Virus record (IMG/VR): IMGVR_UViG_3300028840_007457
Length of the DNA: 64,000 bases
Direction: 5' to 3' (one strand)
DNA from: an uncultured virus (IMG/VR IMGVR_UViG_3300028840_007457)
Lineage: Duplodnaviria > Heunggongvirae > Uroviricota > Caudoviricetes
Shown: piece after piece, positions 1 through 51,017 of the stretch
Numbering within the stretch: the first letter of the stretch is position 1
Layout of the letters: the number at the start of each line of letters is the position of its first letter
The notes under the pieces: model-generated
Told to the model about the DNA's origin: nothing
Seen by the model: the letters and a program-made list of their open reading frames with translations, nothing else
The model's database searches: none
Made by a program: the position numbers and the translations under genes

Positions 1-1248
1 AAGTCTCCATTCTACATAACAATCCATTCCATTGTACTGACACAATTCATAAAGAGGAGCTTCTGATAATCGCCCCAAATTACGTAGGTCTACAATGGGG
101 GCAATATCTGGATCTTCATAATGATAAAAACTTAACCATTCTTTATCAAGAGTTTTCAGAGAAAAAGGCTCTTTGCCAAGCACAGTTCTATTTTCATTAA
201 TACTATGACTTCTAAGCAGTGTACACTCAGTCGGAACATTGAGTAAACTAACTCCAAATACTTCCTTAGTAATTGCTGCCTCGAATTTCAAATTGTGAGC
301 AACCAAGGCTCCAAAACTAACCGGACCTTTGAATAATTTCTGAAGTAATTTTCTAACTTGTCTAATTTCTTTTCCGGTAAATGGCGTATCCTTGTGTTCA
401 TAAGGGATTACATAAGATTTATTGGGACTGTAAGCAAATCCAATAGTAAGAAGAGTAGGATCTATCCGTTCTAAGCCTGCAGTTTCATAGTCTAGTGCTA
501 CAATATGTTTTTTTGTCAGTTTGTGCTGAAGCTTGTGTAAAAGTTTCTTGACTTTCGGAACCGTATCTAGGATAATTGTCTCTTTACCACGCTTACTGTA
601 ATCCTTGGCTTTCGGATCTGTTCTAATAAAAGCTTTTTGAATATCTTCTTTAAATACTCCTCCTCTTTGAGGATTGCGGCTAACATTTGAAAAATGAAAA
701 GTAACTGTTGCCGGATAAGTTTTTCCGGAAGGAGTATGAACTACATAATCTAGACCACGCAATTGTGATATTGATAAATCACTCCCCACAACATCTTTAG
801 ATTCAGGTTTGCAGGCTAAAATATGAGCTGCTATAGAACCCACTAGAACTATATACTGAGGATTAATACGTTCAATATCTTTTAATAAATATTTTTTGCA
901 GCAGCGTATTTCTTCATCAATAGGCGGTCTGTCTTTAAGAAAACTTTTTCCTGTTTTTTTATTTTTTTCTCGTTTGGTAGGACGACAACGAACAATATTT
1001 GCGTAAGCAATTCCTTTTTCTGTTCCCCCATTTAATTGTTTAATTACTCGTCGTTCTATTTGACCTGTTACACCTGTTACTGGCCTACCCGTTTGGTCTT
1101 CAGTTCTACCAGGAGCTTCCGCAATTAAAAGAATGCGGGTTTTACCCCCATGTGTTTCAGTAGCAACCTGTGTGAGGTTTTTGGGTTGAAGAGGGCACCC
1201 TTTGCAGCGCTTACCGAGAGGAGTTAGTTGGTAATTTTTCTTGGTCAC
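1..1248 (-). CDS. Family A DNA polymerase with N-terminal uracil-DNA glycosylase (family 4-like) domain and 3'-5' exonuclease; runs off the left edge of the window
   Basis: Not in the ORF track; hand-translated from a GTG at 1248 after a GGAG RBS. It contains CKGCPL, LIAEAPG..ED..GRP and NIVRCRP (UDG motifs), then ALDYETAGL (ExoI), AHNLKFE (ExoII) and YNGMD (ExoIII). The polymerase domain is inferred, as it lies outside the window. Confidence 0.85.
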   Translation of the reverse strand, partial: MTKKNYQLTPLGKRCKGCPLQPKNLTQVATETHGGKTRILLIAEAPGRTEDQTGRPVTGVTGQIERRVIKQLNGGTEKGIAYANIVRCRPTKREKNKKTGKSFLKDRPPIDEEIRCCKKYLLKDIERINPQYIVLVGSIAAHILACKPESKDVVGSDLSISQLRGLDYVVHTPSGKTYPATVTFHFSNVSRNPQRGGVFKEDIQKAFIRTDPKAKDYSKRGKETIILDTVPKVKKLLHKLQHKLTKKHIVALDYETAGLERIDPTLLTIGFAYSPNKSYVIPYEHKDTPFTGKEIRQVRKLLQKLFKGPVSFGALVAHNLKFEAAITKEVFGVSLLNVPTECTLLRSHSINENRTVLGKEPFSLKTLDKEWLSFYHYEDPDIAPIVDLRNLGRLSEAPLYELCQYNGMDCYVEWRL

Positions 1249-2601: not shown

Positions 2602-3525
2602 CTACAAAATTGGATAAGGCCAGAAATTTGCTTTGATCCTACCCAATTTTATTTCCTGTCCAATGCCGAGATTAAAGATAAGGCGCATAGTATAGGGTTC
2701 ATCTTGATCAAAAACACCATTGTAACGATGCACCACCACTGTTTTCTTTTCCCAGCTTCCAGTACCAGTAATAGGACTACCACTAATAATGGGCACAAGT
2801 ACTTGATCAGATCCATAAATCTGAACTGTCAGATTTGTCAAAGGAGCAGCTGGAATATTAACCCAAAAATCAAAACTGATCGGACGCGGAGCAGTGTCTC
2901 TATAAAACTGGAAATGTTGAACAATTTGTTGTGCGCCTGGAGCTGCTGCACTGTTAGCGCATTTTTGATACATAAGGAAAGTACCAACAGTTGTCCACTC
3001 TAATGGAGTAAACGTAGTATTAACACCACTAGCACCAATATCATAGTAACTACGAGGAAATTCAGGAATGAGAACAATGGGTGCTAAATCTTGTTTTTCG
3101 ATAATTCTTTCATTTGGAAGAGCTTTAGGAGCCTTAAGAATATAATCTATGGTTACAGGAACACCACCTCCAGGATAGTAAACCCAACCAAGAATAACTG
3201 CATCGTTGTAAGTCGTAAAAATGCCTGCTAAGGCTTCATACGTAACAGGAGCCCCTCCAGGTCTTTCTTCATTTTCATGAATAGCGACAATAGTATAATC
3301 TTGAGCGACAGTAGGAGAAAAATCAATCTCTACATCAGTGGTTTCTTCCCAAATTACACCATCAGGTTGGAGACCAAAACCCACGGTAGCAATCAACTGA
3401 TTCGAGCTGTTGACGTCTAAATCTAAACCTTCATACACACCTGCATTATTAAGTACACGATTGACAATATTGTCCCATGCAGAAGGGACAGGAGATAAAT
3501 AATCCCAATAACGAATTTGTGGCAT
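2602..3525 (-). CDS. putative virion structural protein (C-terminal beta-sandwich/CBM-like)
   Basis: Composition and position in the structural block. Confidence 0.55.
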   Translation of the reverse strand: MPQIRYWDYLSPVPSAWDNIVNRVLNNAGVYEGLDLDVNSSNQLIATVGFGLQPDGVIWEETTDVEIDFSPTVAQDYTIVAIHENEERPGGAPVTYEALAGIFTTYNDAVILGWVYYPGGGVPVTIDYILKAPKALPNERIIEKQDLAPIVLIPEFPRSYYDIGASGVNTTFTPLEWTTVGTFLMYQKCANSAAAPGAQQIVQHFQFYRDTAPRPISFDFWVNIPAAPLTNLTVQIYGSDQVLVPIISGSPITGTGSWEKKTVVVHRYNGVFDQDEPYTMRLIFNLGIGQEIKLGRIKANFWPYPIL

Positions 3526-35857: not shown

Positions 35858-36709
35858 TTATTTGTGAATCAAGGATACTTGATAATCTCTGCAGTAATCT
35901 GAAAAGGCACTCGCTCCAGTAGTTATACCTTTTTCCACACAGCCACCAGAGCCAAAAGCATTGCGACAAAGCTTGCCATTTCGTTTGCAAGGGTGGTAAC
36001 GAACAACACCTTGTGGTTCTCTACTACTGTTATAAAATCGTCGTCCAATCGAGCCTCGAAATGGGGTAGCCTTAGGAGTTTCCACGCATCTGTACACGAG
36101 TACCATGTCTACAGTAGCTTGTTGATTATCGAAAATTACCCACTCTTCGTTTAAGAGTCTACCACCCCAAGCTCCAGTCAGTGATCCTCTTCCACCTATG
36201 ACACTATGCTTGTCTTCCATTTCAGCTGTTTCGTAATAGTTTCCTGTTTGAGTAGCAAAATGAGGTTTTCCCAAAGCAACATAGCATTGAAGAACAAACT
36301 TCAAATGCTTATGCTGCCATGCGAACATAGCCGCTTTTTCAATGTTAGGAGCTAAATAAATTCCTGGTCCAAACATACCGTGTATGCTAGTCCAGCGATC
36401 TCGCTTTCGACGCTGAAAAGGCGTGAGTAATCCATCCACAGCAATGCTTTTAAGTGCAGCCTTATTGGTACCATGCCAAGCTTGTTTAATATTGCCAAGC
36501 TTCTGCATTGTGGGGGTGTGGTAAGAGTGTACTTTGTTTTCGAAAGCACATAAGAATTCGTAACCTTCTAATTGAGGTCCACGAAAAGAACTGCTAAGGC
36601 GATAACGACAACTGGAACCAAAAAGTTCCTGAACACTGGGCATCGAAACAGAAGGGTTACTTTTCGGTTTGGCCTTCCGTTTGGATTTCTTTTTGGATTT
36701 TTTCGACAT
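35858..36709 (-). CDS. PARP-like ADP-ribosyltransferase
   Basis: WHGT, GMFGPGIYLA, C.VALG and NEEWVIFD (H-Y-E triad). Confidence 0.85.
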   Translation of the reverse strand: MSKKSKKKSKRKAKPKSNPSVSMPSVQELFGSSCRYRLSSSFRGPQLEGYEFLCAFENKVHSYHTPTMQKLGNIKQAWHGTNKAALKSIAVDGLLTPFQRRKRDRWTSIHGMFGPGIYLAPNIEKAAMFAWQHKHLKFVLQCYVALGKPHFATQTGNYYETAEMEDKHSVIGGRGSLTGAWGGRLLNEEWVIFDNQQATVDMVLVYRCVETPKATPFRGSIGRRFYNSSREPQGVVRYHPCKRNGKLCRNAFGSGGCVEKGITTGASAFSDYCRDYQVSLIHK

Positions 36710-39906: not shown

Positions 39907-40584
39907 TTAGCTATGAATTATTTTTTCTGCTTCCTTCTTACTGTATCGTTTTTTAACTTCATCTTTCCAGGCTTGAGTTTTGGTTTTGTAGAGAAGTAGT
40001 GTATTTCCTTTCCCTTTAGCTTTACCAACTACTCCTTCAAAACTAGCTTCAGGCTCTAAACCCTGATGAACTCGATTTATGAAATTAAAATTCCACTTCA
40101 AGTATCCCAGGTAATGCGGCCCTAATTCTCCAAACAGTTTTAGAAAATCAGTAGGTGGTAAAATGCCTTTTTTGTAAGGAGCTACGTCTATAACCGTTAG
40201 CGTCATCGTACCTCCAATTTCATGCAGGCCAGCAAAGCTTTGTGGTCCATAGTACTCGCAGAAAATCACAGCTCTCTGCCAACGATTATCTCTACAAATT
40301 TTCTCGCACTGGTCAGCCAAAGTTTCTTGAAAAATAAGGGGAGCTTTTCCAAAAATAGAATCACTTTCGTCTACAAGACGATGCCGGGTTCCAACTTTGT
40401 ACCAACCTTTTTTCTTGCTCCATTCAAATCTGAGATTGCTGCCGTCCAACTTAGCAAAGGTGTGAAGGTACTCCTTCAATCCTCCAAAGGGAGGATAAAC
40501 CATACTTGGGTATGTTTTCAAAACAGTTCTTCTTTCGTTTAAGTTTAAATACTTGATTCTGTTTACAACAATTTGAAGGCACAA
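39907..40584 (-). CDS. RNA ligase (Rnl2-like nucleotidyltransferase)
   Basis: Motif I KLDGSN, plus CEYYG, FEGVV and KTK; adjacent to the tRNA cluster. Confidence 0.75.
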   Translation of the reverse strand: MCLQIVVNRIKYLNLNERRTVLKTYPSMVYPPFGGLKEYLHTFAKLDGSNLRFEWSKKKGWYKVGTRHRLVDESDSIFGKAPLIFQETLADQCEKICRDNRWQRAVIFCEYYGPQSFAGLHEIGGTMTLTVIDVAPYKKGILPPTDFLKLFGELGPHYLGYLKWNFNFINRVHQGLEPEASFEGVVGKAKGKGNTLLLYKTKTQAWKDEVKKRYSKKEAEKIIHS

Positions 40585-44457: not shown

Positions 44458-44540
44458 ACACCTCAGTGTTCTACCGTCACTTAATTGAGGTGTTCTGCTA
44501 CTAACCTTTGAGCTGCGGTCTCAGGTAGTCAGTAACATAG

Positions 44541-44613
44541 TGGGCTCGCGGGTGATCGAAACCCGAATGACCAAGTTATGAGCTTGGAGCCTTACCAATT
44601 AGACGACGAGCCC
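44541..44613 (-). tRNA. tRNA with CAT anticodon (Ile2 or elongator Met)
   Basis: CCAAG CT CAT AA CTTGG; G1-C72, so not an initiator. Confidence 0.85.
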
Positions 44614-45635: not shown

Positions 45636-45869
45636 TTGTGACTCCTTTTAGCTGTTTAACACCAATTATTATGCTGTGCTAAAAGAAGGAAGTCAAGAAA
45701 AATAAAAAGGTTGCCGGGTTTTACCACTTGAGGAGAGCCCGGCGTCACTCAAGTAGAGCAATTTATTGACGATAACTACCAAAACGCTTTTCCAGGTGTT
45801 AAGATTGTTAGTACCCTGGTATACCAACAACCGAGAGTTTTAGGAATCACTCACAACCAAGTGCTTTAG

Positions 45870-45979: not shown

Positions 45980-46234
45980 TTAAAAATGTGAGGCCAAGCT
46001 TCGCTAGCGTCAATTCGCCTGCCCAGTCTTGAGCGAGAATACACACCCAAGCACTCACCTGTTTACATCCTTGGACAACCAGGAACCTCACAAATGAGAG
46101 TTTATAGAAGCACTCACAACTGCTTGTTCGGATTACACAAATCAATTCAACAAGCACTTTCGATTTGCGTTGTAGTCTTTTATGGCCAAATAACCCAGGA
46201 AATGTTTCCCCAGGAGGGAGACTACACCCTTTAA

Positions 46235-46301: not shown

Positions 46302-46682
46302 GAAAAAGTGGTAGTTTTTTCTTAGTGTACAGCTACTGACTCAATTAAAAGGGTCAGAGGTTCTACTACCAAACCCATCCGGCTACGGGACTTCCCTGTT
46401 CTGCAGGCTACCGGCAAATACCTCAGAACCCAGGGGTTGCAACTGAAAATTACCCAACACAAATTGTTGTATTTATACAATTTAATGCCAATGGATGGTA
46501 TTTCACTGTTGGCTCCCTCCAACCTGGTGACCAGAGTTCAACGCCTCCCATCTATGACTGCACAAGACACTAAATCCAACTTATGTCGGGTGAGAGTTTT
46601 TGGAAAAGCACTCACAACCTCACATTTTTTACTCTCTGTAGAGGCCAGATTATAACGTGTAATTCCTCTGGCGGTTTTTCAA

Positions 46683-46769
46683 GGAAGATGCCAAGAACTT
46701 GGATTTCCAAACCGGAGTCGAACCGGTACGACACTGTGCACTAATGCCCGGCCTTCCCGTTCATCTTCC
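46683..46769 (-). ncRNA. tRNA-like RNA with an internal T arm (permuted, YrlA-like order)
   Basis: GGAAGATG/CATCTTCC closing stem; ACCGG TTCGACT CCGGT followed by a TTGG AAAT CCAA hairpin. Confidence 0.4.
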
Positions 46770-46857
46770 AAAAAAGTGGGGAGCTTCAGGTACCATCCAC
46801 TCCCCGATCACCTAAGCAGGATCGTTAGACCAGTGCTTAGGGGGCAACTCAAAAAAT

Positions 46858-46977
46858 GTGGGCTGGTAAGCAGTTTTAGTCACCCTGCAACTTATTTTAC
46901 AGGTGTCAAGCTCATTAGCTTCATCTCTTACCAATTACTGCCTCAGATTCTGCGAGCCACAGTCTGAGTACACCCAC
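46858..46977 (-). ncRNA. 120-nt structured RNA, copy 1
   Basis: Paralogue at 47951-48070 with covarying stems. Confidence 0.65.
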
Positions 46978-47050
46978 AAGGTTGAAAATGCGTACCAAGA
47001 GGAGTATTTAAACCCGAACTCCATAGGACACTTGGTACGGGGCTGAAAAA

Positions 47051-47317
47051 GGTAAATGGTGTGCTGCTACGCCAAAGAGGGATTCGGCCTTACCGTCTCC
47101 GGGGTGCCTCCTCACTTAACCGAAAGTACTCCTGTTTCAGCACGCTAGGGAGAGCCACTCCCAAATCTATTTACGTAAAAAGCGACTTTACGTTTTTGAC
47201 TCGCGTGGAACCTGTGAGATTAACCGTACCCAAGCCTCTCACAGCAAAAATCCGAGCAACAGGTCTTCGCCTCACTCTTTAAAGGATGGCTGCTTTTAGG
47301 CCAACCTTCCATTTACC
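47051..47317 (-). ncRNA. 23S rRNA GTPase-associated-centre (H43/H44) mimic with ~200-nt insertion
   Basis: GGAAGGTTGGCCTAAAAGCAGCCATCCTTTAAAGAGT..GCGTAGCAGCACACC closed by the 9-bp stem GGTAAATGG/CCATTTACC. Confidence 0.8.
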
Positions 47318-47856
47318 AAAAACGAAAAATTCGGGTAGAGGGTTGGGGCAAGCGTGTCCACCACTCTCCCTACCGCAACAGGCTTACACTGAAAGGGAAA
47401 GATACATCCCGGTAGCCCCACCTGTTACTTTGGGTTTTTAAGCTCTTCCTACAACTGTAGAACCCCCAACTCCGTGTAGGCGTAAACGGTTTTCAATCAA
47501 TTTTTCGGAGAAGGGCTATGGACTTGAGCCGAAACCGTTGAAGCACTCAAGCTAGTGTCCTCACTCCTAGTTGTCATCTTGTGAATACTCAACCGACTTG
47601 TGACAACGAAAGATGGTTGAGACCTGTTAGTCCCATTTATTGAAGTGGTGTCGCTGGATTACAAACAGGTAAAATCTACCAGACCGACTTACCCACCTCG
47701 CACCCCTGCATTGGTACTGCCAACCCTCTAGTCGCCAACGCGGGATCTCGACTAAAGGCAGCTCGTTCCTTAAACGAACCGTCTCCACTGTGTACTGCAC
47801 AGGCCACTGACCCAATACAATCACAGCTTCTTAGATGTTCTAGGAACTTGCTGGAA

Positions 47857-47941
47857 CGAGGGGGTGGGACTCGAACCCACAGTTATTAATTCTAGCGACT
47901 TGTGGTTTAAAGTCGCAATCTCTGACCGTCATCAGCCCCTC
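47857..47941 (-). ncRNA. atypical tRNA-like RNA with enlarged anticodon arm
   Basis: GAGGGG/CCCCTC acceptor; T arm GTGGG TTCGAGT CCCAC; GCGACTT/AAGTCGC stem with 8-nt loop. Confidence 0.55.
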
Positions 47942-47950
47942 AAAAATTAT

Positions 47951-48070
47951 GTGGGTTGGCGGGCAGTTAAAGTCGGTCTGGATGTTTCACCAGATGCCCC
48001 AAGCTCATTTTCTTCCTTCACCGCCAATTACTTCCCCAGATTCTGCGAGCCACAGTCTGTGTAAACCCAC
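47951..48070 (-). ncRNA. 120-nt structured RNA, copy 2
   Basis: 23-nt core identical to copy 1. Confidence 0.65.
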
Positions 48071-48071
48071 G

Positions 48072-48201
48072 AAAGGCAAACATCGATTACATTTCAGTTG
48101 TCTACCCGGTACCCGACCCCACCGGTAGAACTCTCCTACTCAACGTAGGCCTCAGCCATATCAAAGGCAAACATCAATTACATTTCAGTTGTCAAGGAAC
48201 G
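48072..48201 (-). promoter_or_regulatory. boxA-like leader motif, two copies (48163-48201, 48072-48102)
   Basis: CGTTCCTTGACAACTGAAATGTAAT.GATGTTTGCCTTT; third copy at 50869-50907. Confidence 0.55.
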
Positions 48202-48223
48202 TTTTCTAACTATCTCTTCTTAT

Positions 48224-48252
48224 TAAGTAGCACAGGGTGCTAGAGCTGTCAA
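48224..48252 (-). promoter_or_regulatory. promoter TTGACA-17-TACTTA
   Basis: Spacer nearly identical to that of 50939-50967. Confidence 0.65.
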
Positions 48253-48282
48253 GAAGTAATTTTAAAAAAGGTTTAGTAGTAG

Positions 48283-48591
48283 TGCGAGCAGAGGGAGTCG
48301 AACCCATCACGAGGATTAACCTCATCGGATTTTCTTACCACTACAACTTTCGTTGCCTACTGAGTAGTTTGTGGTCTGGACTTTCTCTTCACCGTGGCTT
48401 AAAAGCTTTAGGTGCGCCGTGTAATAGTCTCTACACTCGGTTTTACAACCTAGCTCGGGATTGCCACCACCACCTTTTTAGGCGTGCTGAGGTTTCCCCG
48501 AATTAGCGGCGTCCACTCACAAGGTTTCCCTAGTAAGGCTCAAATTTAATAGACAAAAGTCCGATGCGTCTACCAGTTCCGCCATGCTCGC
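48283..48591 (-). tRNA. tRNA-Leu(TAA), split by an intron (exons 48557-48591 and 48283-48333)
   Basis: Spliced anticodon arm TCGGA CT T^AA AA TCCGA. Confidence 0.92.
48334..48556 (-). mobile_element. group I intron (IC3-like, no ORF)
   Basis: P (AATTCGGGGAA), Q (AATCCCGAG), R (GTAGAGACT) and S (AAGAGAAAGTCC) elements; terminal G; trnL(UAA) insertion site. Confidence 0.9.
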
Positions 48592-48606
48592 AATCTAATT
48601 ATCGAG

Positions 48607-48684
48607 TGCTACTGAGTGGAATCGAACCACCAAACAATCACCTGTTTTTGAAACAAGCCGCTTTACCTATTTGCGTACAGTAGC
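48607..48684 (-). tRNA. tRNA-Leu(CAA) with short variable arm
   Basis: CTTGT TT CAA AA ACAGG. Confidence 0.8.
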
Positions 48685-48688
48685 AAGC

Positions 48689-49250
48689 GTGAAAGTGGCA
48701 GCTGCAGATGGTTCCACCGGGAAGGCAGTTCCCTACCACTTTCACAAGGTTTTCGATACATACAGAATTCAAGTCAGGTAACAGCCTTTCTTGATCACGT
48801 ACTGCATTGTACCTAGAGTTTTTGTACCCGGACCTACACGACGTGATCGCAGCCCAAGCATCTTACTTAAACGGTCAACTCCTAAGAACCGTACTAGTTA
48901 AAGTGTGAAGGCAAGAAATTAATCTGCCTTCACGTTTCGGTTCCACCACATAGCGTGATTTTGCCTAAAACCTTTGCGGCTTCACTTCCTTGGTTCCACC
49001 GTCTTATTTTAAAGGACTGGTCTTACGGCCCTGCTAGCTAAACTAAAGACCCTTCCACGAGTCCTACGTGGTTAATTCGCCTATTACAGAAATGATTAGT
49101 AATGTTAGCTCAAGGCTTAACAACCGACTTTTCAAGTCGTCACCCTAGTTGTTACCAGTTCCAGACCAAGTAACTACATTATTAGGTGTTAATGCCATTA
49201 ACAATCATTCTAAGGCAGCTGTCATACTGCACAGCTACAAGGGTCACTCA
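48689..49250 (-). ncRNA. large ORF-free, hairpin-rich region, candidate large ncRNA
   Basis: Many hairpins (e.g. GTGAAGGCAG/TTGCCTTCAC, GATCACGT/ACGTGATC) and GGTGGAACC three times. Confidence 0.45.
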
Positions 49251-49596
49251 CTTAAATTTCTCCCTCTTTTTGACCCAACGAAGTGAGGGAGGTACGTTGT
49301 AGGGGACTCAACAGCTGCTGTTGTTGTGACTGGTTGGAAAGAGTGCAGACTGGTGAGGTGGTCAAAGCAATGAAGAACGCTTGCAAGATGACACTGTTCC
49401 TTGACAGAATTGATTGGGCGGAAATTACTTTCCTAGCCGGTATCATCTCTTCTACATTGCCTAATCCCTGCGAAAAATTAAGTGAGCAAGTTTTAACTCA
49501 AATCCCGGAATCACTCAGTTTTTGGTTTTCTGCTCACTTAAACTGAAGTTAAAAAATTTCCGGTTTTTGAAGGAGAAACCGGAAAACTCCTTACTG

Positions 49597-49806
49597 CTAG
49601 TCCAGCTTCACCTCCTCCACCTCAGGGGTAGGGGGACGGAAGCAGGACACGGTTTCGAGCACCGTGAAGGGGCGACCAACCTTAGCAGCTAGCCGCTTGG
49701 CCTCCTGATCGGCGCTTTCCCGACTGGGGTGTCGGTAGTACGTCCGACCGTAATGGTGCCCTTCCTCTCCGAAACTTTGAACGATCCAGTACTTCTTCAG
49801 GTCCAT
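49597..49806 (-). CDS. hypothetical protein with high-GC codons
   Basis: TAAGGAGGAG RBS; YRHPS.ESA..EA.RLA motif. Confidence 0.75.
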   Translation of the reverse strand: MDLKKYWIVQSFGEEGHHYGRTYYRHPSRESADQEAKRLAAKVGRPFTVLETVSCFRPPTPEVEEVKLD

Positions 49807-50233
49807 GGTTCACTCCTCCTTATGAGTGGGTTGGTGGGGCAGTTGCACCCCGGTTGATTAAAATGGCGAATTTTTATAAGTCGCCGTTTATCAAACTTCC
49901 ACCCACGGAAAAGCACCTAAGGTTCTGAATTTTCCTTTCTCGTTCAAAAGTTTAGGATTTACAGATTGTCGGGATCAAACCGATAAAGAGTAGCTCCTAT
50001 TTAGCAACCAACCTGTACCCTCTCAGAAGAATTATTGGTGCGAGAGGACCACCGTAAATATTTAAATCGGTCACATGATTTACCTATTTTCGAGTGTGAC
50101 AACATTTACCGTTGGACTTGTCACAAATCCCAAATTTAAATACCGATCTGCAAAAAATACTGGGTTAGAGTTTTAAACAATCAAAAACTAAATTCTCCTT
50201 TCTTTTGTAATACCTACTATTCCTATCAGAATT

Positions 50234-50608
50234 TGGAGATGCTGGGATTCGAACCCAGGTGTTGAGTATAGTCCCTTATGACATCTACGATTATAGCTGC
50301 TACGATTAATTCCATCCCAACATTCTCTTGAGCAGCAAAGTCGGTTGGGTCTTGTACGGAGTGCTTATTTCGTGCTCTCCTTCCTACCGCAAGGGGAGAG
50401 GCCACTAGTCTGATTTAATGATGCGCAATTCTAAACACCTCAGACGGGGTTTTTAGGTGCACAATGGCCAAAATTAAGCCGCGTTAGCGACAGCCATGGG
50501 AACGTCGTTATCGTTCGCTTTTCTTGTTTCCTGAGTTTTTAACGAGGTCCCAGAAATCCCCGAATCGCAGTCCTAACTTTCTACCCCAATCGAAACCAAT
50601 TCATCCCC
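50234..50608 (-). ncRNA. ssrA: tmRNA, tag (A)ANDNDVPMAVANAA
   Basis: GGGGATG/CATCTCC acceptor with G3-U; TTCGA; T arm; tag ORF at 50474-50518. Confidence 0.95.
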
Positions 50609-50868: not shown

Positions 50869-50967
50869 AAAGGTAAACATCGATTACAGTTCAGTTGTCA
50901 AGGAACGATTTTGCCAACTTTCATCAGCGTCTAAGTAGTTTGTAGCACCGTGTGCTAGAGTTGTCAA
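50869..50967 (-). promoter_or_regulatory. promoter TTGACA-17-TACAAA (50939-50967) plus boxA-like motif (50869-50907)
   Basis: Head of the RNA island. Confidence 0.6.
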
Positions 50968-51017
50968 TCTTTTTGTTCAGAAAAGTTTGCAACTCCTACT
51001 AAGAAGGTAAGTATCAA

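Follow-up and report, generated by a model that had tools for sequence, protein, structure and literature searches.

The 64,000-nucleotide stretch of uncultured phage DNA analyzed here (the window) carries two 120-nt elements, termed copies A and B, which are paralogous in sequence, keep a common structure, share the context of a phage tRNA array and are absent from Rfam. A third element, copy C, is a partial relative. The reading favored here, tentatively and with somewhat less than even confidence, is that A and B would be small RNAs of the tRNA array excised by tRNA-processing enzymes; from the sequence we infer their transcription, processing, stability and binding function. The elements and the internal block invariant between A and B are as follows.

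46858-46977, minus strand: copy A, 120-nt structured RNA (sequence, folding, alignment)
46907-46916, minus strand: invariant block AAUGAGCUUG in copy A, element positions 62-71 (A/B alignment)
47951-48070, minus strand: copy B, 120-nt structured RNA with the architecture of A (sequence, folding, alignment)
48000-48009, minus strand: invariant block AAUGAGCUUG in copy B (A/B alignment)
49826-49906, minus strand (from the neighboring genes): copy C, 81-nt partial relative (terminal helix and 3' motif)

Sequence Relationship of Copies A and B

The two 120-nt copies described in the earlier note are present on the minus strand and align without a gap, with 85 of 120 bases identical and 35 differences. 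The identical 23-nt core that it reported, CAGACTGTGGCTCGCAGAATCTG, occurs exactly twice on the minus strand (46944-46966 in A and 48037-48059 in B), compared with a chance expectation of 0 and no match in 100 shuffles even with up to three mismatches. Identity is distributed in patches, with successive segments agreeing at 43/47, 5/14, 10/10, 9/25, 10/12, 3/7 and 5/5 positions, so that the 5' end is 91% identical compared with 36% for the peripheral hairpin (9/25). A recent copy would not give such a mosaic, and the patchy divergence suggests that A and B are old paralogous genes under selection. The homology begins exactly at G1 and stops after CCCAC-AU(AA)UUUUU-GAG. Neither copy appears to be coding, as there is no reading frame common to A and B, the plus-strand ORFs end in different frames and the minus strand at both copies has no ORF of at least 50 amino acids. 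Copy B recurs with 100% identity in the nearest virus record (G001, 221,679 bp), which contains A and B only, compared with three copies (A, B and C) in the window.

The confinement of A and B to one lineage, with no homologue in the collections searched, would also fit decaying tandem duplicates that lack a function and have inherited their structure from a hairpin-rich ancestral spacer. This is judged improbable, since neutral drift does not leave 47 nt at 91% identity beside 25 nt at 36%, and three compensated base pairs with none broken (described below) are not expected under neutral decay.

Fold and Covariation

The predicted fold of A and B is a three-way junction composed of helices P1, P2 and P3, with an additional hairpin in the variable region.

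Element 1-5/116-120, minus strand: P1 (copy A positions)
Element 12-34 (window 46944-46966 in A, 48037-48059 in B), minus strand: P2 hairpin (alignment and fold)
Element 44-50(51)/(108)109-115, minus strand: P3 (copy A positions)
Element 75-94 in A and 77-94 in B, minus strand: variable hairpin (fold)

All 19 nested pairs are kept in both copies, and with six pseudoknot pairs added the 25 proposed pairs are standard in each (25/25). P1 has the closing stem GUGGG/CCCAC that the earlier note had recognized and that is found in A, B and C; P2 has an AA bulge and a 7-nt loop, and P3 opens into an interior of 58 nt in both A and B. P1 and P3 follow one another without a gap on the 3' strand, covering element 109-120 in B (12 nt) and 108-120 in A (13 nt). 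The consensus fold lies 0.3-0.8 kcal/mol from the minimum free energy (MFE) fold, and the pair probabilities are 0.9-1.0 in P1 (its five core pairs), 0.7-1.0 in P2 and 0.6-0.9 in P3, where only the first pair is lower (about 0.2). Copy A on the minus strand has an MFE of -39.9 kcal/mol (z -3.05), and the fold of B is no better than shuffles (z -0.67, 50/200). The segment UGAGCU (64-69) and the P2 loop GGCUCG (20-25) are complementary, with a duplex energy of -7.4 kcal/mol, and a pseudoknot may form between them, one that is without covariation because both sides are invariant.

The stem covariation between A and B claimed in the earlier note is real and is located in P3, where UUGGUAA/UUACCAG in A is replaced by UUGGCGG/CCGCCAA in B with three pairs changed on both sides and one pair changed on one side, in a sample of two full copies and one partial copy, one phage lineage and one helix. 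In a shuffle control the observed value is equalled or exceeded 54 times in 500, which is not significant, the control being weak because it has two sequences only. In simulation the 19 nested pairs all survive 35 random substitutions in 0.003% of 200,000 trials, and all seven pairs of P3 survive seven substitutions in that helix in 0.17% of trials.

The sense strand of A and B is taken to be the minus strand because folding of this strand is better than that of the plus strand by 4.5-10 kcal/mol in both copies, because G-U pairs arise only when they are read in this direction and because the neighboring RNA genes called by ARAGORN are all on the minus strand. The same strand specificity bears on whether A, B and C are instead repeats at the DNA level, forming a mobile or recombination element or a cassette insertion site with hairpins that are a property of the DNA. 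All three have inverted ends (GTGGG...CCCAC) and lie in direct orientation within 3 kb, and C adjoins an ORF of foreign composition, all of which such a repeat would explain. It is nevertheless considered very unlikely, as the inverted ends are 5-7 bp, the flanks have no target-site duplication, there are three copies in the window and two (A and B) in G001, the G-U pairs make the fold specific to the minus strand, and the conserved internal blocks have no role in a hairpin.

Searches for Related RNA Families

The family of A and B, which the first reading of this DNA had not recognized, has no match in Rfam for either the island or the single copies. No family reaches the gathering score, and none was recovered for A or B at E<=5 in the island or at E<=10 with each copy alone, apart from five chance-level matches of A alone to eukaryotic miRNA, snoRNA and lncRNA models (E 7-9.8); B alone gave 0. 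The collections searched contain no homologue of A or B outside their own phage lineage, and both are missing beside the GAC-like RNA wherever this was scanned (18 of 18 other viral loci, 3 of 3 cultured phages). On the basis of these searches the A/B RNA belongs to a family that is not yet catalogued.

Several candidate assignments were rejected. A, B and C are not called as tRNAs by ARAGORN and have no tRNA-clan match at E<=5 (nor do A and B, each alone, at E<=10), and the tRNA T-loop (UUCRANY) on the T stem is absent, P3 opening into a large interior. A miniature inverted-repeat element is not consistent with inverted ends of 5-7 bp, unrelated flanks and few copies. No Rfam covariance-model match was obtained to the known ribozyme classes (hammerhead, twister, twister-sister, pistol, hatchet and HDV-like).

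A self-cleaving ribozyme of a new class, freeing the neighboring RNAs from a polycistronic RNA, would account for the conserved core with its candidate pseudoknot, the variable peripheral hairpin, the covarying P3 and the sharp boundaries of homology, and A and B would sit in a multi-RNA precursor that needs defined ends. This is very doubtful, as no Rfam ribozyme class matches, no cleavage site is indicated by the sequence, C keeps the position but is without the conserved core, and tRNA-type processing accounts for the layout without catalysis.

RNA Island and Neighboring Genes

The island is placed on the minus strand and is composed of tRNAs, a tmRNA and rRNA-fragment mimics, with all 10 ARAGORN-called neighbors (nine tRNAs and the tmRNA) in this orientation. 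The host of A and B is a giant uncultured phage, and both copies lie among its tRNA genes. The features adjacent to A and B are listed below.

46453-46587, minus strand: L1-stalk-like rRNA-fragment mimic (island Rfam search)
46683-46769, minus strand: T-arm-bearing RNA downstream of A (T arm read directly from the sequence)
46851-46857, minus strand: spacer AUUUUUU then GAG, after A (A/B homology ends here)
47056-47312, minus strand: GAC-like rRNA-fragment mimic (island Rfam search)
47858-47941, minus strand: tRNA-like RNA directly after B, 9-nt gap (T arm, fold)
47942-47950, minus strand: spacer AUAAUUUUU from B to the next RNA gene (flank comparison)
48072-48114, minus strand: repeated motif ...GACAACTGAAATGTAATCGATGTTTGCCTTT, family D1, ending 1 nt before B

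The mimics reproduce the sites of 23S rRNA to which uL1 and uL11 bind. Downstream of the GAC-like region, A follows after about 80 nt, in agreement with the earlier placing of one copy beside a GAC mimic. The spacing and flanks of A and B resemble those of the tRNA genes of the island: 7-9 nt separate each copy from the RNA that follows, the 5' flanks are rich in pyrimidines, as are those of the tRNAs and tmRNA, and CCA is absent from A and B as it is from all nine island tRNAs (0/9 encode it). The 3' flank is A followed by U6 in A and AUAA followed by U5 in B.

In the RNA directly after B an acceptor stem of 6 bp is combined with a D-like hairpin, a canonical T arm (GUGGG UUCGAGU CCCAC) and, in the place of the anticodon arm, a 7-bp stem with an 8-nt loop. 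Its MFE is -32.2 kcal/mol (z -3.2, with 0 of 200 shuffles as good); it scores 23 bits with the tRNA-Sec model (E 0.92) and is not called by ARAGORN. The layout after A differs from that after B, with two hairpins (46778-46841) located between A and the T-arm-bearing RNA at 46683-46769. The latter is closed by an 8-bp stem (GGAAGAUG/CAUCUUCC) and carries the arm ACCGG UUCGACU CCGGU, and its fold is no better than shuffles (z -0.69). Further copies of the family D1 motif are found at 48163-48205 and 50869-50911, the last upstream of the tmRNA, and this motif may be a phage promoter or processing signal.

Copy C and the 69-Amino Acid ORF

The terminal helix of C (GUGGGUGG/CCACCAACCCAC) is as in A and B, and its ends resemble theirs (5' GTGGGT, 3' AACTGCCCCACCAACCCAC); the AACUGC motif is present as well. 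A search with the 3' 18-mer of B allowing up to two edits recovers C, compared with any match in 1 of 100 Markov resamples of the window. The overlap is limited to the terminal helix and a 19-nt 3' motif. The interior is different and is formed by a long AU-rich hairpin and a GGGG/CCCC hairpin with the loop UGCAACUG, without P2. The covariance model R1, built from A and B, scores 143 bits for A and 145 bits for B and misses C even with filters off at E<=10. The description of C in the earlier note as a shortened third relative thus holds for the relationship at its ends and not for the rest; on its sequence C is a partial relative and not a shortened copy of the whole RNA. As the plus strand of C folds equally well, its strand is taken from the adjoining genes.

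49597-49806, minus strand: 69-amino acid ORF directly after C (AGGAGG at 49815-49820)

C lies just 5' of a strong ribosome-binding site of a high-GC gene, as first noted, with its end 5 nt from the AGGAGG and 19 nt from the ATG of the ORF, which has a GC content of 0.56-0.64 compared with about 0.40 for the window. The ORF has three homologues at 71-75% identity, no Pfam match, no structural match and one weak match to a PHROG of unknown function (AF2 pLDDT 65.7). C most likely provides the mRNA of this ORF with a 5'-terminal structure for processing or stability.

An alternative for all three copies is that they are cis-acting leaders marking the start of a downstream unit and not free RNAs. 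Their roles would be punctuation of the precursor, 5'-end protection, antitermination in a structured operon or, after C, control of translation. Each copy immediately precedes another gene (a tRNA-like RNA in the case of A and B, an mRNA in that of C), C stops 5 nt short of the strong Shine-Dalgarno, B is preceded by the repeated motif also found upstream of the tmRNA, and the three have in common nothing but the terminal helix, as would suit a signal better than a whole RNA machine. Plant-mitochondrial t-elements, tRNA-like processing signals next to mRNAs (PMC1920247), offer a precedent. Punctuation alone, however, leaves unexplained the near-invariant 47-nt 5' end and three internal blocks in otherwise saturated paralogues. 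In addition, none of the three copies has a terminator-like site in the promoter/terminator scan, no common promoter is visible upstream of them, and no pairing between C and the Shine-Dalgarno is seen when C is folded (MFE) with its downstream sequence. The same scan and fold, with the U runs after A and B, are the observations that bear on the expression platform (an intrinsic terminator or a sequestered Shine-Dalgarno coupled to the fold) of a riboswitch or transcription-attenuating leader. Leaders of this kind are regarded as unlikely.

Proposed Role of A and B

In the favored reading, as small RNAs excised from the tRNA array, A and B would be transcribed on the minus strand within a polycistronic array of tRNAs, tRNA look-alikes, tmRNA and rRNA-fragment mimics. 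P1 is predicted to stack on P3 giving an unbroken 12-13 bp on the 3' strand, the length of the tRNA acceptor/T-arm stack. This stack together with the pyrimidine-rich leaders and short AU-rich 3' spacers makes excision by tRNA-maturing enzymes the most likely route, with RNase P presumably cutting at the 5' end and RNase Z/E and exonucleases acting at the 3' end. The processed RNAs would accumulate as stable small RNAs and would then be analogues of T4 rnaD, which also directly precedes a T-arm-bearing RNA. Their working part would be the nearly invariant core composed of P2, the junction strand GGNAGUAAUUGG and the blocks AAUGAGCUUG and GACUNNAACUGC, with pairing of the P2 loop to UGAGCU as a candidate for closing a pseudoknot. 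The core is probably a specific binding surface for a host translation or RNA-processing protein, which is in line with the adjoining rRNA-fragment mimics.

A bolder version, held to be improbable, is that A and B represent a class of small RNA, new and either catalytic or able to bind the tRNA machinery, with which giant phages run their own RNA-gene operon. As a ribozyme, the pseudoknotted core would self-cleave and punctuate the precursor; as a decoy, the RNA would capture a host tRNA-processing or translation factor via its stack resembling the top half of tRNA and act together with the neighboring uL1-site and uL11-site mimics.

Because A and B adjoin copies of the uL1 and uL11 sites, they can be considered members of an RNA toolkit brought by the giant phage, presumably acting on translation or RNA processing. 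Comparison of the two separates constrained parts (the 47-nt 5' module and three short blocks) from free parts. At present this is an orphan family, and what it adds is descriptive; a binding partner or activity, if found, would give a handle on a group of uncharacterized phage RNAs.

Comparison with Known Systems

It has long been known that stable RNAs other than tRNAs lie hidden in the tRNA clusters of phages. In T4 the order is tRNA-Arg, rnaD (119 nt), a 6-nt spacer and rnaC (139 nt, with a T arm). Like A and B, rnaD (species 2) and rnaC (species 1) are non-tRNA RNAs of about 120 nt in a phage tRNA array, on the same strand as their neighbors and with few nucleotides between, and in T4 as in the island the RNA that is not tRNA-like comes first and a tRNA-like RNA with a T arm comes next. 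The likeness is positional only, as R1 finds no homology at rnaD or rnaC. A whole-genome search of T4 gave no match at either gene, and with filters off in the T4 tRNA region (L095) nothing was found at 3054-3172 or 2909-3047 except a 17-nt T-arm-like stretch of 4 bits. Unlike that of A and B, the MFE fold of rnaD has no three-way junction closed by its own ends, and in the window the RNA is in duplicate with a partial third relative. The window is thus a second, unrelated case with a T4-like layout, here duplicated. The T4 RNAs, RNAC and RNAD, are still termed RNAs of unknown function in a passage of PMC9697503.

In the top half of tRNA (the acceptor/T-arm minihelix), as in A and B, the terminal helix runs on into a second helix along the 3' strand. 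The acceptor and T stem stack of about 12 bp is matched by 12 bp in B and 13 bp in A (in C 12 bp interrupted by two bulges), the likeness being confined to geometry, and a single unpaired base and an AU-rich trailer come next. RNase P accepts acceptor/T-arm minihelices. A and B differ from tRNA in being without a T-loop, D arm or anticodon arm and in having a P1 of just 5-6 bp.

The phi29 pRNA has a functional domain of about 120 nt, in which the 5' and 3' ends close a three-way junction and two complementary internal segments could pair within or between molecules. A and B are similar in size, in the junction closed by the ends and in the complementary internal segments, and differ in having no Rfam match to pRNA and in being located in a tRNA array and not near packaging genes; the likeness is an analogy taken as a lead only.

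The rRNA-fragment mimics are non-coding and structured and share the island and strand of A and B, whereas A and B match no rRNA model. The GAC-like RNA is also found in unannotated gaps of the tRNA clusters of all three cultured Pseudomonas phages examined.

Copies A and B are a structured, duplicated RNA

Two 120-nt elements and a shorter relative lie on the minus strand, and positions within each copy are counted 5' to 3' on that strand.

46858-46977 (-): copy A, 120 nt
47951-48070 (-): copy B, 120 nt
49826-49906 (-): copy C, 81 nt

A and B are a real, structured and duplicated RNA of an uncatalogued family, and every item of the observation in the earlier note is correct. The two copies align without gaps over their 120 nt with 85 of 120 positions identical, and the identical 23-nt core described there has exactly two exact occurrences, both on the minus strand, with no match in 100 shuffles even when three mismatches are allowed. 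The homology begins at the first G and extends 11-13 nt beyond the last C (A-U-(AA)-U5-GAG), and the flanks upstream and farther downstream are unrelated.

Identity between A and B by element position
1-47: 43/47
48-61: 5/14
62-71 (the invariant block): 10/10
72-96: 9/25
97-108: 10/12
109-115: 3/7
116-120: 5/5

These segment identities leave the peripheral hairpin near random and the 5' module together with three short blocks almost frozen. From this pattern we read the pair as probably an old duplication under selection rather than a recent copy, with gene conversion confined to the conserved blocks as an alternative explanation. Both copies are present unchanged in the nearest virus record (G001), and in contigs of four DNA runs over 46400-50000 A, B and C are covered by the phage's own contigs only, with 0 differences and no population variation in the pairs. 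The comparative evidence is consequently two and a half sequences.

Fold of A and B

On the minus strand A and B can form a common three-way junction composed of three helices.

P1: element positions 1-5 / 116-120
P2: element positions 12-18 / 26-34, with an AA bulge and the 7-nt loop UGGCUCG
P3: element positions 44-50 / 109-115

The 3' strands of P3 and P1 are contiguous with no unpaired base between them, and all 19 nested pairs are standard in both copies. The covariation reported earlier is located in P3, where three pairs are changed on both sides (U-A, A-U and A-U versus C-G, G-C and G-C) and one on one side. The observed value is reached in 54 of 500 shuffles, a control that cannot decide with two sequences, and for this reason a substitution simulation was run. 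With 35 random substitutions all 19 pairs are retained in 3e-5 of 200,000 trials, and with 7 substitutions inside P3 its 7 pairs are retained in 1.7e-3 of trials. The consensus fold lies only 0.3-0.8 kcal/mol above the minimum free energy with pair probabilities of 0.6-1.0, except for the first P3 pair (~0.2), and the fold of B is no better than that of shuffled sequence (z -0.67). The evidence for selection on the structure is good for two sequences. It is very unlikely that the elements are decaying duplicates. The folding energy of A is -39.9 kcal/mol on the minus strand versus -29.6 kcal/mol on the plus strand and that of B -34.6 versus -30.1 kcal/mol, and in C the plus strand folds as well as the minus strand. 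A repeat acting at the DNA level is highly improbable.

A peripheral hairpin is found in both copies (75-94 in A and 77-94 in B), with unrelated sequences and a register offset of one position. In the P2 loop, GGCUCG (20-25) could pair with UGAGCU (64-69) at a duplex energy of -7.4 kcal/mol; both sides are invariant, so that covariation neither supports nor contradicts this pairing. A second helix, 37-41/104-108, was dropped because it is mismatched in B and would cross P3 without a linker.

Copy C and the adjacent 69-aa ORF

The earlier note presented C as a shortened third relative, which holds for the ends, where GUGGGU on the 5' side and 19 nt on the 3' side are common with A and B, and fails for the interior, which is unrelated. 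A search with the last 18 nt of B reaches C at the cost of one substitution plus one insertion; when the window was resampled 100 times under a first-order Markov model, only one resample gave any such hit. The window contains three instances of the pattern AACTGC-N3-4-CCA-N-CCCAC (A, B and C), all on the minus strand and within 3 kb, against none in 100 shuffles, a circular count as the pattern was derived from the three copies. The P2 helix and the conserved blocks are absent from C, and R1, the covariance model derived from A and B, fails to pick it up at E<=10 even with filters off. Thus C is a partial relative retaining the terminal helix only. Its fold has two hairpins inside an 8-pair terminal helix with one bulge: a long AU-rich one, and a GGGG/CCCC one that abuts the 3' strand. 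A, B and C agree in the proximal UGG/CCA pairs and in GUGGG/CCCAC and differ in the distal P3 pairs.

As had been noted, C adjoins the strong ribosome-binding site of a high-GC gene, with AGGAGG placed 5 nt after the end of C and a 69-aa ORF of GC 0.56-0.64. This ORF has three homologues with 71-75% identity, encoded on contigs of up to 60,262 bp and showing that related phages exist, and no family was found for the protein. An RNA-binding autoregulator was considered for it and dropped (no family, AF2 pLDDT 65.7, no structural match at E<=0.001). In C the same terminal helix may serve as a processing or stability structure for the mRNA. No intrinsic terminator is called at the elements. A reading in which all the elements are only cis-acting leaders or punctuation is unlikely.

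The surrounding RNA-gene island

The window is phage-like DNA, sharing 82% of its sampled words with G001, a viral contig of 221,679 bp rated 63% complete. The minus strand carries all window ORFs of at least 150 aa that are not nested in a longer ORF; 12 of 14 large or flanking ORFs are without a PHROG and 63 of 76 ORFs without a Pfam match. An island of RNA genes on this strand encloses A, B and C.

~40.6-50.7 kb (-): the island, with 9 tRNAs and a tmRNA
46453-46587 (-): 23S rRNA-like stretch, 49.5 bits, E 1.8e-12, gathering score 50
47214-47309 (-): resemblance to the GTPase-associated centre (GAC) of 23S rRNA, 21 bits with the archaeal LSU model
47858-47941 (-): tRNA-like RNA, 84 nt, starting 9 nt after B
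48072-48205 and 50869-50988 (-), and 1-210 of locus L002: two-part repeated module
~48283-48591 (-): tRNA-Leu(UAA) with a group I intron in the anticodon loop, exons read by eye
Loci L091 2501-2669, L092 2501-2681 and L093 2501-2680: GAC-like RNA in Pseudomonas phages

In the bacterial 23S rRNA model the 23S-like stretch corresponds to positions 2109-2265, the L1-stalk region, and it stands alone in the phage island, where an rRNA operon is absent. The GAC-like RNA (47056-47312, minus strand) shows 88-92% identity to DNA of Pseudomonas phages Astolliot, pf16 and UNO-G1W1, where it occupies gaps among tRNA genes without RNA annotation. It consists of two conserved halves flanking a variable insert, and its invariant 23-mer recurs in 18 viral contigs (L099-L116); reads at 80% likeness accumulate at 47247-47367, presumably from genuine rRNA. 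Copies of two ribosomal-protein sites neighbour A and B, an arrangement suggesting that the island as a whole targets host translation or RNA-processing machinery.

The intron in tRNA-Leu(UAA) is matched by the Intron_gpI model at 48341-48566 (-) with 29 bits and E 4e-4; ARAGORN misses this split tRNA, and a portion of the intron shows 74.5% identity to two uncultured phage records of 735 kb. The tmRNA (50233-50608, minus strand) has the tag ANDNDVPMAVANAA. A 25-nt repeat occurs three times within the island (45833-45857, 46096-46120 and 46594-46618; families D6 and D13) and on the minus strand forms a GUUGUGAGUG..N..CUCUC hairpin that may serve processing or termination. The tRNA island is bordered by an RNA-ligase-like ORF (39907-40584, minus strand; PHROG 548, E 2.7e-7), and an ORF with a PARP catalytic domain is present at 35858-36709 (-) (Pfam PF00644, E 6e-13).

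A and B are laid out like genes within a tRNA-type precursor. Pyrimidine-rich 5' flanks (..UUUUCAACCUU for A, ..GUUUGCCUUUC for B and ..GUGCUUUUCC for C) are shared with most island tRNAs and the tmRNA, and AU-rich sequence follows the base after P1 as it does downstream of the island tRNAs, none of the nine of which encodes CCA. The tRNA-like RNA after B, which ARAGORN does not call, has a 6-bp acceptor stem and a canonical T arm, no U8/N9 linker, and a 7-bp stem with the 8-nt loop UAAACCAC at the place of the anticodon arm; an unusual decoder and a mimic are both possible. Downstream of A are two hairpins and a U6 run; beyond them lies an 87-nt RNA, which has an 8-bp closing stem and contains ACCGG-UUCGACU-CCGGU. 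A repeated motif ends within 1 nt upstream of B, with copies 91 nt farther up and upstream of the tmRNA; the two parts of the repeated module are TTGACA..CTCTAGCAC..GTGCTAC and then CGTTCCTTGACAACTGAA.TGTAAT.GATGTTT.CCTTT. Its 91-nt unit is tandemly repeated with a copy number higher in G001 than in the window, and assemblies break at this repeat.

Searches for known families and homologues

The earlier note did not recognise the family, and neither does Rfam, with no match at the gathering score nor at E<=5 across the island; at E<=10 with each copy alone, A gives five chance-level matches (E 7-9.8) and B none. Membership of a catalogued tRNA, tmRNA, Y RNA, 5S, pRNA, riboswitch or ribozyme family is thereby ruled out within covariance-model sensitivity. 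An HDV-like topology was dropped, as it does not fit an element whose two ends pair with each other. A new self-cleaving ribozyme is highly improbable.

Several other identities were discarded. A and B are not coding: on the plus strand the ORFs covering them terminate in different frames, and on the minus strand ORFs of at least 50 aa are absent there. A tiny ORF from a conserved AUG (by eye) would give peptides of 7 and 13 aa unrelated beyond three residues. No TROVE/Ro domain is found in the 76 window ORFs scanned and no Y-RNA match, which removes a Ro/Y-RNA link, and mimicry of 5S or other rRNA by A and B amounts to short resemblances by eye with no model match. The invariant block (AUGAGCUUGG in B) has a perfect 10-nt complement at 44578-44587 (-) in tRNA-Met (44540-44613), comprising the 5' strand of the anticodon stem and the CAU anticodon; with ~0.2 such matches expected per segment and six segments tried, this pairing is not significant.

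The searches found no homologues of A and B beyond this phage lineage. In viral_contigs the exact 23-nt core gives 0 loci, and a loop/block pattern gives 65 loci that are all chance by local alignment to A and B (best score 18). The end-motif patterns give 0 loci and one locus (L094), which looks like chance, with tRNA-free surroundings and a position seemingly within coding sequence. The pattern TGGCTCG..AA..AGTAATTGG gives 22 loci in metagenome_contigs, two being the phage's own contig and the other 20 reaching at best an R1 score of 14.6 bits (E 0.05) with broken helices. A blastn search of A and B against 50,697 phage records returns matches of E>=1 only, all but one within annotated CDSs. 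Nothing credible is found by R1 in any of the four whole records of Astolliot, pf16, UNO-G1W1 and T4 (best E 0.18-0.27), and with filters off the 18 viral loci with GAC-like RNA give at best 13.3 bits (E 0.12). Relatives of the flanking proteins are absent from viral_contigs for the 163-aa ORF, the 69-aa ORF and the 69-aa alignment, and genome_contigs yields an 11-residue match only. A full-text literature search, made by text and not by sequence and so silent on publication status, finds no paper on such an RNA.

Proposed processing and comparison with phage T4

The enzymes that process tRNAs measure the stack of the acceptor and T arms, a length of 12-13 paired bases. P1 and P3 together give the 3' strand of the element an unbroken run of 12-13 paired bases. 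The precursor-type layout, this stack length and the precedent of phage T4 lead us to propose excision of A and B in the manner of tRNAs. The excised RNAs would accumulate as small stable RNAs, and the frozen core, made up of P2, the junction strand and possibly a pseudoknot, could offer a surface for specific binding, with a protein as the likeliest partner. Beyond structure and layout we infer each of these steps, and we put forward tRNA-like excised small stable RNAs with a binding core as a tentative reading.

In T4, rnaD and rnaC are both described as having yet unknown function (PMC9697503). The T4 tRNA cluster carries tRNA-Arg followed by rnaD (119 nt, not tRNA-like), a 6-nt spacing and rnaC (139 nt, with a T arm). 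This rnaD-rnaC pair is the closest precedent for A and B, an orphan family that adds a further case to the poorly understood small RNAs of phage tRNA arrays.
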